From the IMG/VR virus record IMGVR_UViG_3300025314_000006: a stretch of DNA of 64,000 nucleotides. One strand, 5' to 3'. Under the pieces are notes generated by a model, which did no database searches, was not told where the DNA came from, and saw only the letters and a program-made list of their open reading frames with translations. Shown one piece after another: positions 1,650 through 10,126 of this stretch. The stretch comes from a virus. Its lineage: Duplodnaviria > Caudoviricetes. The number at the start of each line of letters is the position of its first letter. Position 1 is the stretch's first letter. The translations under genes were made by a program, and so were the position numbers.

Positions 1650-2336
1650 TTATATTAATTCATATCGTTTTGCCCACTTTCTCACCGCAACATCACTAAC
1701 TCCAAATTTTCTACCAAGTGCACAATATGAATTATTTTCTATCATTTCTTTTAATTCTTCTTTAGAGGGTCTGTTTTTTACTTTTCTAAAATTTAATCTA
1801 GGTACATATTTTCTCGTTGTTTTTTTATTTGTTTTATTTTTTTTTGCATTTTTTCTGTCTACGCCAATTTTACCACGGCAATGAGTTTCTAATGTGAAAT
1901 TGCAGTTTGGACATAAAAATCTTAAGTTTTCTAATCTATTATCATTATTTATTCCGTTTTCGTGGTCAATAATTAAACTAATTTTTTTACCTCTCCATAT
2001 TTCTCCTTGTCCACATTCTTTACATTCATATTCTATCATGTTATTATCTCGTATTCTTTTTTTTAAACAAGCCCTTGCAACAGAACTGTTTTCACAAAAA
2101 ATTTCTTCATCACTTTTCCTTAATAATCTGTCTTCATTAAACATTTTTTTAGCAAAATCACTACGGTTTAAAAAATGAGAAGTATCTATTGACCATTTAT
2201 TTAAATTTGTTTTAAGTATTTTATAAGATGAAGAAGAATCGCTTCTTCCAGATTTTACTATAACATCTCTAAATGTGATGCTTTCAGATACTAATTTTTG
2301 TAATTCTTCTTTTGTATATTCTTTATGTTCTTTCAT
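1650..2336 (-). CDS. HNH homing endonuclease
   Basis: CKECG...IDHENGINNDNRLENLRFLCPNC motif; C-terminal HTH; located inside the tRNA operon. Confidence 0.85.
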   Translation of the reverse strand: MKEHKEYTKEELQKLVSESITFRDVIVKSGRSDSSSSYKILKTNLNKWSIDTSHFLNRSDFAKKMFNEDRLLRKSDEEIFCENSSVARACLKKRIRDNNMIEYECKECGQGEIWRGKKISLIIDHENGINNDNRLENLRFLCPNCNFTLETHCRGKIGVDRKNAKKNKTNKKTTRKYVPRLNFRKVKNRPSKEELKEMIENNSYCALGRKFGVSDVAVRKWAKRYELI

Positions 2337-2393
2337 AATTCTAACTTATTTTAATGTAAATAGGTTAGAATTTTTTAATAAAGTAAATAGTTG

Positions 2394-2469
2394 AGGATAA
2401 GAAGAGAATTAAACTCCTGTTAAATATGTTTTGCAGACATATCCCGATTTCAACATTGGGTACTTATCC
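2394..2469 (-). tRNA. tRNA-Cys(GCA)
   Basis: GGATAAG/CTTATCC acceptor, U73; ATATGT-CT GCA AA-ACATAT anticodon arm. Confidence 0.85.
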
Positions 2470-2482
2470 TTGTAAAAATTAA

Positions 2483-2754
2483 AAAAGTAAAATCCTAAGT
2501 ATAGCCGCGATTTTGTTCTATCTCATCATTTATCTGAAGGTATTGCTACCAACTGGAGACTTTAAACGTCTACCACGCACCTACCCGACTATCAACAACG
2601 TAAAGGTTCCCCGTCTACAGTCTGTTTGGCTTGCATCCTATGTTGCGGAAGTACATACGCTATTTGTTATAGCTTCTTCCTCCTTTTAAAAGATGTCGCG
2701 AACTTCCTCTCGATTTTAAGAATCGAGCGATGAGTCCTTCAGGATTTTACTTTT
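2483..2754 (-). ncRNA. rnpB: RNase P RNA (catalytic subunit) with minimised specificity domain
   Basis: 14-bp P1 (AAAAGTAAAATCCT/AGGATTTTACTTTT); P2 CTCATC/GATGAG; P3 CTCGATT/AATCGAG; CR-I GAGGAAGTTCGCGAC pairing (P4) with CR-V ACAAAATCGCGGCTATA; CR-IV AGATAAATGAT; P18-like GGTA-GCAA-TACC. Confidence 0.85.
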
Positions 2755-2758
2755 CTTG

Positions 2759-2830
2759 AGGCTCCACTGACAATCGATGTCAGGACTCAAATTTACAAGA
2801 TTCGTGTTTTGCCACTTAAACTACGGAGCC
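2759..2830 (-). tRNA. tRNA-Thr(TGT)
   Basis: GGCTCCG/TGGAGCC acceptor; loop CT TGT AA; atypical T-loop ATCGATT. Confidence 0.85.
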
Positions 2831-2846
2831 ATTATTTGTTCTTATG

Positions 2847-2920
2847 TGGAATCTACCGGCATTGAACCGGTCTCTCAGGCGTGCAAGGCAAGTGTTCTAA
2901 GCCAAATGAACTAAGACCCC
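2847..2920 (-). tRNA. tRNA-Ala(TGC)
   Basis: GGGGTCT/AGATTCC acceptor with G3:U70; loop CT TGC AC; two mismatches in the anticodon stem. Confidence 0.8.
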
Positions 2921-2958
2921 AATTTAATTTGTTCAAAGTACAAATTATTAAAAACTTT

Positions 2959-3034
2959 TGGCGAGTATGACCGGTCCTGACCCGGCGACCTCCTCATAGA
3001 CAGTGAGGCATTCTTCCAACTGAACTACACACTC
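2959..3034 (-). tRNA. tRNA-Asp(GTC), CCA encoded
   Basis: CCTCA-CT GTC TA-TGAGG; G73; T-loop GTCAGGA. Confidence 0.85.
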
Positions 3035-3046
3035 ATTATTTTTTAA

Positions 3047-3355
3047 AAAAGTAAGACGCCATTTCGCTGATAGCGTTTTTTGTGTTCTGTTTAATGCGCC
3101 AAAGAACATCTGATTATGTTCAGCATTTAGCGTTCATGCTTGGTTATTATAACATACTAACATTCCTAATATTGTCTGATTACCTATTTTGAGTTTGCAT
3201 AGTAGGTTGATTTTTATTTCCAGGGTAAAAATCAACAAACAAACCTAACGTCTGATAAACTTTATTTTTCATCCGGTAAACGTTTTGTACATTGTTTAGT
3301 TCATTAGGCTAAAACAACACGTCTTTTTCACGGACAACATTAGTAACTTACTTTT
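3047..3355 (-). ncRNA. Unassigned structured RNA (~309 nt) between tRNA-Ile and tRNA-Asp
   Basis: 9-bp closing stem AAAAGTAAG/CTTACTTTT; 11-bp hairpin at 3206-3236; several smaller hairpins; four ATCAG motifs; no ORF in the track. Confidence 0.55.
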
Positions 3356-3359
3356 CTTG

Positions 3360-3433
3360 TAGTGCATCTGAGAATTGAACTCAGTACTTCCACGTTATCG
3401 GCGTGGCACTCTGGACCGATGAGTTAATGCACT
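3360..3433 (-). tRNA. tRNA-Ile(GAT)
   Basis: AGTGCAT/ATGCACT acceptor; CCACG-CC GAT AA-CGTGG (C33 instead of U33). Confidence 0.85.
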
Positions 3434-3447
3434 GTTTTTATTTAAAG

Positions 3448-3520
3448 TCTAGGTGGCCTGCTCCGACCAGGCGGTCTCCAGTTCCCAAAACTGGCGGATT
3501 TCCAACTTTCCCACACCTAG
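3448..3520 (-). tRNA. tRNA-Pro(TGG)
   Basis: CTAGGTG/CACCTAG acceptor; CCAGT-TT TGG GA-ACTGG; T-loop GTCGGAG. Confidence 0.85.
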
Positions 3521-3558
3521 AAATTTTGTTTATCTTTCCAAACTGTCTTTTAATAAGA

Positions 3559-3621
3559 GTTCAAGCTCGGTTATCCACCGATTCGAAGGACTGCATTAGC
3601 CTTCTCTGCAGACACTTGAAC
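3559..3621 (-). ncRNA. Compact structured RNA with an H-type pseudoknot
   Basis: GTTCAAG/CTTGAAC closing stem; interleaved CTGCA/TGCAG and GAAGG/CCTTC helices; TCGG-TGGATAA-CCGA hairpin. Confidence 0.5.
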
Positions 3622-3623
3622 AT

Positions 3624-3699
3624 TGGAGCGAAAAACCAGGTTCAAACTGGCGACCCCCAGAGTGGAAATCTGGCGCTCTATCAACTGAGCTATTTTCGC
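3624..3699 (-). tRNA. tRNA-Gly(TCC), CCA encoded
   Basis: GCGAAAA/TTTTCGC acceptor, U73; CCAGA-TT TCC AC-TCTGG. Confidence 0.9.
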
Positions 3700-3788
3700 T
3701 TATGTATATAATTCTCTCAGACCATATTACCAAGATTTACTTTGGACTCACCGTATTTTAAAAGTGAGCAGAATTGTATTTAATTAAA

Positions 3789-4736
3789 TTATTCTAATAA
3801 TAATTCATCAATTGTTAAAATTGAATTTAAATTATCTATTGTTTTTTTAAATATCATTTTAACATTAATGTTGTTTTGTTCTAATACTAAACTCATTTTT
3901 GTTTTATCTATTATTGAATAATATCCTTTAGTTTCTATGTATAAGTTAAAATTTGGCAAATAAAAATCTGGCACATACGTTTTTTCAACACCTTCTTTAA
4001 TATATTGAATATATATTTTTCTAATCCACAATATTTTATTGTCATTTAACCATTGCGACATTTTTAATTCATATTTTCCTCTTAAAGAATATTCTTCACC
4101 AATAATATTTTTTTGTTTATAAAATTTCACATGTTTAAAATTGTTACTTATTTCATTTTCTTCTAACATCTTGGAGTGAGATTTGCTAATTTTCGATTTT
4201 TGTTCAGAAGAAAGTGGCTTTCCTAATTGGTGATGTATTCTCTTACCAGTAGCATACATTTCTTTTTGTTGCTCAGATGCTTTATTTACCCTATTATCAG
4301 TTTCCTTTGTAAGTCCTCTTGACCATCCCATTTTTGATTTAGTCTCTGCATTACTGTATTTTTTATTTTTATATTCAACTCCATCCGGTGTATGCATTTG
4401 AAATATATGACCACATATACCAAGTTTGTGAAATATTAATTCGCAATGAGGACATTTATATTTATCTACATCAACTTTCCAAGATTCATCTACTGTTATT
4501 TGTTTTTTATTAACTGTATTACATTTATTATAATGCCTTTCAAAATTAGAAACAGAAATATTTTTATTACATTTATCACAACATTTTGTGTTTTTAGGTT
4601 TTCCAAGTAAAGAAATACTTAAATTTTTTAATCTTTCTTTTAACTTTGGATTAGATTCACAATTTACTATATGAGCACCAAATTGTTGTGGGATCTCAAA
4701 CTCAAAAGACTCTTTGCAATGCGGACAAGTTTTCAT
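3789..4736 (-). CDS. Putative homing endonuclease (Zn fingers, NUMOD-like region, PD-(D/E)xK C-terminal domain)
   Basis: CPHC zinc motifs; HHQLGKPLSSEQKSKIS NUMOD3-like stretch; YVPDFYLP...YIETKGY nuclease motif. Confidence 0.75.
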   Translation of the reverse strand: MKTCPHCKESFEFEIPQQFGAHIVNCESNPKLKERLKNLSISLLGKPKNTKCCDKCNKNISVSNFERHYNKCNTVNKKQITVDESWKVDVDKYKCPHCELIFHKLGICGHIFQMHTPDGVEYKNKKYSNAETKSKMGWSRGLTKETDNRVNKASEQQKEMYATGKRIHHQLGKPLSSEQKSKISKSHSKMLEENEISNNFKHVKFYKQKNIIGEEYSLRGKYELKMSQWLNDNKILWIRKIYIQYIKEGVEKTYVPDFYLPNFNLYIETKGYYSIIDKTKMSLVLEQNNINVKMIFKKTIDNLNSILTIDELLLE

Positions 4737-8752: not shown

Positions 8753-10126
8753 ATGAATAATAAAGAACTAAGAAAATCGATAAGAAGGATTTTAAAGGAA
8801 AATCTTGAAAATTCTGATTGGGTGAATGCCAGTGATGCTCAAAAAGCTGCAATGCAAGATATAGACTCAGAAGATGAATTTGAACACTTAGGAACTAATA
8901 GGTTTGAAAAAGATTTTGATGTTGAAGATTTTCTATATGATTTAGAAGCTCAAAAAAATATGTCTGAGCCATCTGTAAAAAGATTAGAAAAACAAATTGG
9001 GCAATTAAAAAGATTTGGAAAGGGTTCTTTGAATGAATTATCGCCAGAAATAAGACAATCCGCACTTAAAAAAGCTGTTGATTATATTGAACAACCTGGA
9101 GATACCTATCATAAAGACCCGCTCCAATATATTAAGAAAAAAAACCAAGCAAATTCATTTATTTCTCATGTTAATCCTGAGTTAAAAAAAGAAGCTATGG
9201 AAATAGCAAAAATGATAGATGTAAATTGTGAAAGTCGTATAGAAAAAGAAGCGGTAGGAAGTACACTTGAACCAAATGTTGTATTATATTTTGGTCAAAA
9301 CATTGCAGATTTAAGTAATCAAATACTTAAAATTGCCATTAAAAAAGATAATCATACATGGGAAACCAAAAAATTTATTCCTGAAAATATTCAAAGAAGA
9401 TTGGCTAATTTTATAAAAAAGATTCAAACAAAAGAAATATCTAGTCCAGTTAAACAATTGAATGAGAGATTTCTTGGTGGATGGCATTATTTCGCAACTC
9501 CAGAAGGTAAAGAAGAATATATTAAAGACCTCGAGTCTAAAAAGATTAATGCAAAAGGAGAAGAATTAGAGCAAATTGAAAAAGAACTTAAAAAGTTAAA
9601 ATCAATAAAACCAAAATCCTTAAAAGAAGAAACATCAAAACTTGACAAGCCAAAAGATTCTGCAGGAAATTCAATATCATCCGGAGTGAGAGTTGAAGAT
9701 TTAGAGTCGGGTAGTGCTGGACGAGTTGAGAGATTTGGTATTGACGACAAAGGACAATTAACAGTTCATGTTGCTTGGATAACAAAATATGGACAGATAG
9801 CTCCAAAGTCCATTGTTTATCCCAAAAATATAATTGTTAAAGATTCTGCAAAAAAGATAACAGACGAAGGAATTAAAGATACTTTAAAAAATATTTATAA
9901 AGAATTGAATCCTATTGAAAAATGGAAACAAATGAAAGAAAATCGTAAAAAGCTCGAAAAAGAAGTTAGTGATTTACGAAGAGAAGTTTCTGAAAAGGAA
10001 AAAGAATTAGAAAAAATAGTGAATAGTAATCATATTAAAGCTGATGTAAGTAATGATGTTGACGAAGGAATTGGAGCTGGATTATCACTTCCAATAAAAA
10101 AAGGAGCCGGAAGCAGATTTAAATAA
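8753..10126 (+). CDS. Hypothetical protein, putative protease-processed virion polyprotein
   Basis: N-terminal LRKSIRRILKE; internal SLNE, QLNE and SLKEE linkers; TATTTAT at 8728-8734. Confidence 0.6.
   Translation: MNNKELRKSIRRILKENLENSDWVNASDAQKAAMQDIDSEDEFEHLGTNRFEKDFDVEDFLYDLEAQKNMSEPSVKRLEKQIGQLKRFGKGSLNELSPEIRQSALKKAVDYIEQPGDTYHKDPLQYIKKKNQANSFISHVNPELKKEAMEIAKMIDVNCESRIEKEAVGSTLEPNVVLYFGQNIADLSNQILKIAIKKDNHTWETKKFIPENIQRRLANFIKKIQTKEISSPVKQLNERFLGGWHYFATPEGKEEYIKDLESKKINAKGEELEQIEKELKKLKSIKPKSLKEETSKLDKPKDSAGNSISSGVRVEDLESGSAGRVERFGIDDKGQLTVHVAWITKYGQIAPKSIVYPKNIIVKDSAKKITDEGIKDTLKNIYKELNPIEKWKQMKENRKKLEKEVSDLRREVSEKEKELEKIVNSNHIKADVSNDVDEGIGAGLSLPIKKGAGSRFK

Follow-up and report, generated by a model that had tools for sequence, protein, structure and literature searches.

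Bacteriophage T4 encodes within its tRNA cluster two stable RNAs that are not tRNAs, species 1 and 2 (rnaC and rnaD). These RNAs of ~120-140 nt are co-transcribed with the tRNAs and excised by tRNA processing; to our knowledge their function is still unknown. The 3'ETS-leuZ RNA of E. coli is a sponge derived from a tRNA spacer. Large non-coding RNAs with several domains are seldom found in bacteria and phages: most have historically proved to be ribozymes or the cores of ribonucleoproteins (RNPs), and catalysis or an RNP core role is frequent among large complex bacterial and phage RNAs whose loops are invariant.

GOLLD and ROOL are large multi-domain RNAs of phages and prophages that lie by tRNA islands and have no assigned function (Weinberg et al. 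2017, PMC5737381; Kretsch et al. 2025, PMC12286853), and both form homo-oligomeric cages (PMC12286853). Theta ribozymes, which are HDV-like, are phage RNAs positioned directly at tRNA 3' ends and tied to tRNA maturation (Kienbeck et al. 2024, PMC10879173).

The window, that is, the whole 64,000-nt stretch of viral DNA analysed here, is AT-rich (G+C ~29%) and carries phage-type genes for HNH and endonuclease-I-like nucleases, ribonucleotide reductase, a DnaB-like helicase, a family A DNA polymerase and an SNF2 helicase. Its 16 tRNA genes are all on the minus strand. The gap of 324 nt between two of these, tRNA-Ile(GAU) and tRNA-Asp(GUC), is occupied by the gene of an unclassified structured non-coding RNA, a type of ~300-400 nt that resides in the tRNA arrays of large uncultured phages. 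The locus comprises the following features.

3045-3357, minus strand: the whole structured RNA element, ~313 nt, bounded by the outermost pair of the closing helix
3360-3433, minus strand: tRNA-Ile(GAU), upstream flank, CCA not encoded
2959-3034, minus strand: tRNA-Asp(GUC), downstream flank, 10-12 nt past the closing helix P1
2470-2757, minus strand: RNase P-like mini RNA, given as context; RF00010 at 39 bits, under the gathering score; arms CAAGAAAAGUAA/UUACUUUUUUAA

Read on the tRNA strand, the gap starts with CAAGAAAAGUAAGUUAC and finishes with GUCUUACUUUUUUAAAAAAUAAU. The 5' end of the element is 2-4 nt past the discriminator of tRNA-Ile and its 3' end 10-12 nt before tRNA-Asp, in agreement with the first-pass annotation, which had placed the start of the element right after a tRNA 3' end. 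A distant blastn search with window positions 2300-3800 against 50,697 phage records returned tRNA-Gly matches only; the element is thus without homology to any of these deposited phages.

Relatives of the RNA were found in seven phage lineages, in every case inside a tRNA array and on the tRNA strand. In group A (the window, L026, L029 (= L031, L032) and L035 (= L060)) it fills the gap between tRNA-Ile and tRNA-Asp, and in group B (L054 (= L037), L041 (= L055, L057) and L061) that between tRNA-Met and tRNA-Ile. L026 and L029/L031/L032 were reached by synteny, through relatives of the 2H-phosphoesterase-like gene (1110-1565) that adjoins the operon. The alignment of L026, L029 and the window provided an invariant block of 21 nt, AAACGTTNACCNGATGAAAAA, which served as query for further homologues and matched L035 in IMG/VR, L060, L054/L037 and L041/L055/L057 in a metagenome collection, and, in a genome collection, L061, a contig of 375 kb assigned to a Bacteroidota MAG. 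Because the homologues were retrieved either by synteny or via this same block, its invariance is partly an ascertainment effect. Profiles that excluded the tested match gave nhmmer E-values of 2e-40 to 1e-11, and a profile built from group A only detects the group B copies (E = 1e-11 to 4e-14) and nothing else in the 0.6 Mb searched. The full-length homologues within group A are listed here.

L026:11744-12094, minus strand: full-length homologue, nhmmer E = 2e-40, gap of 351 nt
L029:12562-12920, minus strand: full-length homologue, nhmmer E ~1e-20, gap of 359 nt
L035:4973-5338, plus strand: full-length homologue, retrieved from IMG/VR with the 21-nt block

Other routes to homologues were less productive. 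A pattern scan of IMG/VR for the terminal arms (AAGAAAAGTAA-N265-295-TTACTTTTTT) gave 17 matches, all attributable to chance; those within tRNA-rich loci lie on the strand opposite to the tRNAs and over a small ORF. The block E pattern ACAATNTTAG has no match in IMG/VR, the pattern TGTCGGTGAGAAAAAGACG recovered L035 only, and the protein encoded at 8753-10126 has no relatives in IMG/VR. The gene at 3789-4736 (minus strand), which encodes a zinc-finger and endonuclease-I-like protein, was discarded as a guide to the element: its 59%-identical homologues, in the related huge-phage contigs L019-L025, occur in other contexts, 350-650 nt upstream of tRNA-Glu pairs and oriented opposite to all their neighbours. 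Its behaviour is that of a mobile nuclease gene associated with tRNAs.

The homologous loci present several further RNAs. A HEARO RNA (124.6 bits) lies near the tRNA array at L057:7748-7965, and permuted tmRNA genes are found near tRNA arrays at L057:5952-6114, L061:3902-4101 and L001:14196-14444. In L066 and L067 (positions 230-270 kb of the 375-kb contig C16 of G001), 29 tRNA genes and a tmRNA are gathered within 40 kb beside the RNA, and this array has further gaps of 430-860 nt; the contig probably represents the genome of a huge phage, binned together with a possible Bacteroidota host. Downstream of the RNase P-like RNA, L026:10808-10896 and L029:10953-11190 contain a tRNA-like sequence, GGTACCGTGGCCGAGCGG..., that is not called by ARAGORN; the L029 segment also includes a run of N.

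The element has a real, conserved, strand-specific multi-helix fold. Folded as a single sequence it gains only modestly over its shuffles (z = -2.4). The alignment of the four distinct group A sequences, 73-85% identical, provides the decisive evidence: RNAalifold reaches -94 kcal/mol, compared with -54.6 +/- 5.0 kcal/mol in column-shuffled alignments (z = -7.9) and with -72.7 kcal/mol on the opposite strand. The resulting fold has 14 helices and 89 pairs, and in an independent count over the four sequences 96.3% of 352 cells are standard pairs. Compensatory changes occur at 13 pairs, a number reached in none of 500 shuffles (slid controls gave 0-2), and the covariation score is 0.245 versus 0.168 +/- 0.016. 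Helix tips differ in length across the relatives with pairing retained. The first-pass annotation had proposed a structured RNA in the tRNA operon, and the 14-helix fold with its covariation upholds this proposal. It had also named a lack of conserved structure in relatives as the outcome that would speak against it; structure and sequence are both kept, with covariation, in seven lineages, so this objection falls. The fine structure is provisional since it derives from seven lineages and four distinct well-aligned sequences, and several helices never vary; P5, P9 and the 3' half of the group B RNAs are its least certain parts.

The architecture of this RNAalifold structure is given below in window numbering, every feature being on the minus strand.

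3347-3357, minus strand: P1 5' arm AAGAAAAGUAAG; conserved 9 bp at 3347-3355; paired in seven of seven lineages
3045-3055, minus strand: P1 3' arm CUUACUUUUUU; helix 1, 100% paired
3333-3343, minus strand: P2 5' arm CUAAUGUUGUC; helix 2, 11 bp
3166-3176, minus strand: P2 3' arm GACAAUAUUAG; closes domain I
3262-3336, minus strand: universal core, near-invariant in seven of seven lineages
3254-3258, minus strand: P6 5' arm UUAUC; helix 6, 100% paired; overlaps the ATCAG at 3252-3256
3180-3184, minus strand: P6 3' arm GGUAA; helix 6
3189-3248, minus strand: P7-P8 long arm, helices 7 and 8; contains the hairpin 3206-3236; tip length variable
3081-3162, minus strand: domain II, helices 9-13; stacked P9-P11 closing a three-way junction with P12 and P13
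3122-3140, minus strand: P12 hairpin of domain II
3105-3121, minus strand: P13 hairpin of domain II, variable in length
3056-3076, minus strand: P14 3' hairpin, helix 14; runs without spacer into the P1 3' arm; conserved loop YUAGCRAAA
3075-3089, minus strand: A-rich conserved single strand CAGAACACAAAAAAC; AGAAAAYA in all lineages

The RNA is clamped by P1, in which AAAAGUAAG (3347-3355) pairs with CUUACUUUU (3047-3055). The terminal closing stem of the first-pass annotation is thereby recovered, extendable to 11 bp (3357/3045), as is its 11-bp hairpin at 3206-3236, which is present in the computed fold. Three positions of P1 covary when all seven lineages are compared, giving the versions GUAAG/CUUAC, GUGAG/CUCAC and GCGAG/CUCGC. 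Domain I, enclosed by P2, is made up of the A-rich core, which does not vary, and the arm of variable length. P2 shows a single compensatory change, U-A to C-G in L029, and has as its equivalent in L061 a 10-bp helix. The order of the universal core is a helix GUCSG/CSGAU (one compensatory swap of G-C to C-G, in the window copy), an asymmetric A-rich internal loop with GAGAAAAA opposite UGA, a helix GACG/CGUU around a variable hairpin, and the single-stranded GAAAAAGAA. At the tip of the P7-P8 arm the relatives insert 17-26 nt, which form an extra 6-bp helix with two compensatory pairs. Domain II has compensatory changes at six pairs, and its P13 is ~18 nt larger in L029 and L035. Three of the five pairs of P14 are compensatory (ACGCU/GGCGU, AUACU/GGUAU, ACAUC/GAUGU). 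Two unpaired segments outside the core are also conserved: AGAAAAYA, which precedes P14, and the P14 loop sequence YUAGCRAAA. Assignment of the A-rich internal loop as a K-turn or T-loop was dropped, as this loop has 5 to 7 nt depending on the copy and the tandem G.A signature is absent. A candidate 3-bp pseudoknot between the P11 bulge (3095-3097) and the P14 loop (3065-3067), with the series C-G / U.G / U-A, is compatible with the alignment and indistinguishable from chance; it was likewise set aside. The matching region of L054 and L041 can be drawn as an H-type pseudoknot, with statistically non-significant support.

For group B the fold covers P1, the core and, in L061, P2, with the 3' halves outside the structural alignment. 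L041 has no evident P2, and L054/L037, the shortest lineage of the group, is without P2 and most of domain II. All three lineages have between the upstream tRNA and P1 a conserved spacer of ~75 nt with its own hairpin, so the RNA does not adjoin a tRNA 3' end directly in every lineage. This spacer (L054:1100-1180, L041:979-1050, L061:7449-7530) contains TTTTGTTCTTTGAAATATTAAAAAA, followed by a covarying hairpin (UUCAAG/CUUGAA, UUCG/CGAA and UCAGGC/GCCUGA) whose loop, GCGGAA, is conserved. Candidate identities for the spacer are a promoter plus leader, an independent small RNA, and an extension of the RNA at its 5' end.

The position of the element raises the question of whether it acts in cis alone, as a spacer that orders or regulates the maturation or read-through of the polycistronic tRNA transcript: as a folding insulator, a nuclease entry site, or a switch in which the 3' hairpin and U-run would terminate transcription of the downstream tRNAs. 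The RNA is always between tRNAs and on their strand, P14 followed by CUUACUUUUUU scores as terminator-like, and GGYG (3095-3098) could leave P11 to pair with the 5' arm of P14, or contact the P14 loop through 3 bp. That alternative pairing is no better than chance, however, being equalled in 245 of 500 shuffles. The U-run is itself the 3' arm of P1, whose covariation with the 5' end, 300 nt upstream, extends to all seven lineages, and in L029 the run is reduced to UUU; on these grounds an intrinsic terminator or attenuator was rejected. Fourteen helices, two domains and invariant loops moreover far exceed what a spacer or terminator needs, and we regard a purely cis-acting role as unlikely.

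A coding function fares worse. No conserved ORF exists in the seven lineages: stop-to-stop frames wholly within the gap are of at most 45 codons, and indels of 1 and 2 nt fall within conserved blocks, which led us to reject a protein-coding gene or its remnant. A variant is a leader mini-ORF, in which AUG-AAA-AAG-AAA (3261-3272) would open a short Lys-rich peptide and its translation would control the structure. An AUG followed by two or three Lys/Asn codons is indeed present in all seven lineages (Lys-Asn-Lys after the AUG in the window, Met-Lys-Lys-Lys otherwise), but the frames stop after 7 to ~50 codons with neither frame nor length conserved, and a 1-nt indel shifts the window copy. A Shine-Dalgarno sequence is absent, the AU of the AUG is inside the conserved GUCSG/CSGAU helix, and the sequence downstream is constrained as helices and not as codons. 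A leader peptide can scarcely be the explanation.

The RNA belongs to a family absent from Rfam. The first-pass annotation had recognized no family in it, and the Rfam search bears this out: neither the gathering thresholds of Rfam 15 nor a search at E<=10 with relaxed filters assigned the element to a family, the best scores being chance matches on either strand, and the scan of the homologous loci gave no match at the element. For RNase P (RF00010/RF00011, with the P4 core and CR-I to CR-V), cmscan of 3020-3375 at E<=10 found nothing, while the same type of search scores the neighbour at 2486-2747 as RNase P at 39 bits. The marks of a tmRNA are a tRNA-like domain with a T-arm, a G3:U70 acceptor and a tag reading frame. 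ARAGORN detected no tmRNA, standard or permuted, in the window, nor did Rfam at E<=10 over the element; tmRNAs were found by one or both programs in L001, L057 and L061. The tRNA cloverleaf model (RF00005; tRNA, tRNA-like or pseudo-tRNA) has no match within 3035-3358 at E<=10, and no Rfam match at E<=10 was obtained for the small self-cleaving ribozymes (HDV-like/theta, hammerhead, twister and others) or for Y RNA/YrlA. Sequence homology to T4 rnaC/rnaD is absent in the distant blastn search against the 50,697 phage records, which gave tRNA-Gly only. In the literature we found no paper describing this RNA family.

The Rfam models of GOLLD and ROOL match neither the window nor the five homologous loci scanned. 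The setting is nonetheless theirs, a phage, a tRNA island and no evident protein partner (PMC12286853, PMC5737381): all seven lineages place the element inside the tRNA arrays of phage-like contigs. The conserved loops and A-rich strands could make intermolecular contacts, as a self-assembling RNA-only particle would demand. The element has half their size or less, though, and no conserved palindromic kissing loop, UAGCUA being found at the P8 tip in two lineages only. Taken together, this evidence makes a particle of the ROOL/GOLLD type very unlikely.

The neighbouring RNase P-like RNA invites a different comparison. At both ends it and the element have identical arms of 11-12 nt, while their interiors are unrelated. 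We reject paralogy, with the element derived by duplication of its RNase P-like neighbour, because the arms alone match. Each of the four group A lineages has both RNAs, and in three of these lineages they have the arms AAAAGUAA/UUACUUUU in common; in L035 the arms differ. These shared arms could reflect gene conversion, a shared processing signal or the exchange of arms between the two molecules. In group B, nhmmer with a four-sequence profile found no RNase P-like RNA at any of the loci, 40 kb of the L061 phage included, and the RF00010 scan of the whole L061 MAG returned the bacterial gene only. An obligate partnership with the mini RNase P is unlikely since group B carries the RNA without a detectable one; a cooperation of the two confined to group A is conceivable.

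The same observations bear on a trans-acting role in tRNA handling. The element might be a scaffold docking the elbow or acceptor of pre-tRNAs, which in group A would give the mini RNase P a specificity domain in trans, or an independent new large ribozyme acting on pre-tRNAs. The joint array in the four group A lineages and the common arms in three of them are consistent with this proposal, as are the size and invariant loops that recur among catalytic RNAs and RNP cores. Theta ribozymes, which adjoin phage tRNAs and process their 3' ends (PMC10879173), offer a precedent. On the other side, no RNase P model matches even at E<=10, group B is without a detectable mini RNase P, the arms of both RNAs differ in L035, and the nested topology of P1 and P2 is not HDV-like. 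We therefore judge such a machine decidedly improbable. If it did exist, huge phages would carry a split or auxiliary RNA-based system of tRNA maturation.

The first-pass annotation had drawn attention to the sequence ATCAG, occurring four times. The count is correct (minus strand, 3067, 3110, 3176 and 3252), against ~0.33 copies expected per 309 nt from the window density. Among 2000 dinucleotide shuffles none had four copies of ATCAG itself. In 10% of the shuffles, though, one 5-mer or another with two or more G/C is present four times, and ATGTT likewise occurs four times in the element, so the repetition is non-significant. The reading proposed for these repeats was a multivalent sponge, presenting four ATCAG sites to a protein or sRNA. 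Four exact copies on the RNA strand, and the existence of tRNA-spacer-derived sponges such as E. coli 3'ETS-leuZ, are in its favour; conservation is not. Only the 3252 copy is invariant across the four group A lineages. The 3110 copy, in the variable P13 loop, is retained in a single relative (L026), that at 3176 is ATGAG or AGGAG in the relatives, and at 3067 the window alone has ATCAG, in the conserved P14 loop, which elsewhere reads ATTAGC/ACTAGC. Group B retains none. The four copies also fall in four structural contexts: a helix arm (P6 5' arm), a junction (P6/P2) and two different loops (P13 and P14). As the copies are mostly unconserved in group A and absent in group B, the multivalent sponge is unsupported, and we consider it extremely improbable.

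The reading towards which we lean, on the strength of the sequence comparisons, is that of a stable RNA cut from the tRNA precursor by tRNA-processing enzymes and acting in trans through its invariant A-rich core. The RNA would be co-transcribed with the tRNAs as a single precursor. Its 5' end would result from the 3' cut of the upstream CCA-less tRNA by an enzyme of the RNase Z or RNase E type, and its 3' end from the cut by which RNase P matures the 5' terminus of the next tRNA, 10-12 nt off, after which exonucleolytic trimming may shorten it back to P1. P1 and the P14 hairpin stacked on it would shield both ends, as the terminal helices do in RNase P RNA and tmRNA. The mature folded RNA would then act in trans, with a putative partner from the tRNA or translation machinery. 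The candidate binding or active surface comprises the sequence-invariant segments that are single-stranded or in internal loops: GAGAAAAAGAC, CCCGAUGAAAAAGAA, AGAAAAYA and the P14 loop YUAGCRAAA.

Comparison with the described systems places the element among several of them. With T4 rnaC and rnaD it shares its setting, encoded among phage tRNA genes, and its own excision would be a further likeness; the T4 RNAs are smaller, at ~120-140 nt, and blastn reveals no homology. With 3'ETS-leuZ it would share release from a tRNA precursor and subsequent action in trans, both of which we infer for the element; that sponge is short and little structured with a base-pairing site, whereas the element has a large conserved fold and an unconserved repeat motif. 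Like theta ribozymes it is a phage RNA beginning at a tRNA 3' end. Those are minimal double pseudoknots, whereas the element is several-fold larger, has P1 and P2 nested, matches no Rfam ribozyme, and loses its tRNA abutment in group B. RNase P RNA (RF00010) and its mini version 290 nt downstream have in common with it the placement just after a tRNA, a P1-type clamp and a similar length, with terminal arms identical to those of the mini version in three of four lineages; they differ in an unrelated interior and the lack of a model match at E<=10, and the element is also present in phages without the mini RNase P. GOLLD and ROOL resemble it as large structured multi-domain RNAs in phage tRNA islands with no obligatory adjacent protein gene. 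They have about 580 and 800 nt compared with its 300-400 nt; the element is clamped by a 5'/3' terminal helix and has no match in sequence or structure to their Rfam models. With ~14 helices, covariation and invariant loops, and seen nowhere but in tRNA arrays of very large uncultured phages, one branch of which (group A) pairs it with a phage-encoded mini RNase P RNA in the same array, it offers a compact, well-delimited construct for structural work and for questions of phage translation and tRNA supply. With it, the few unexplained RNAs of tRNA islands, T4 rnaC/rnaD, GOLLD and ROOL, gain a new family.
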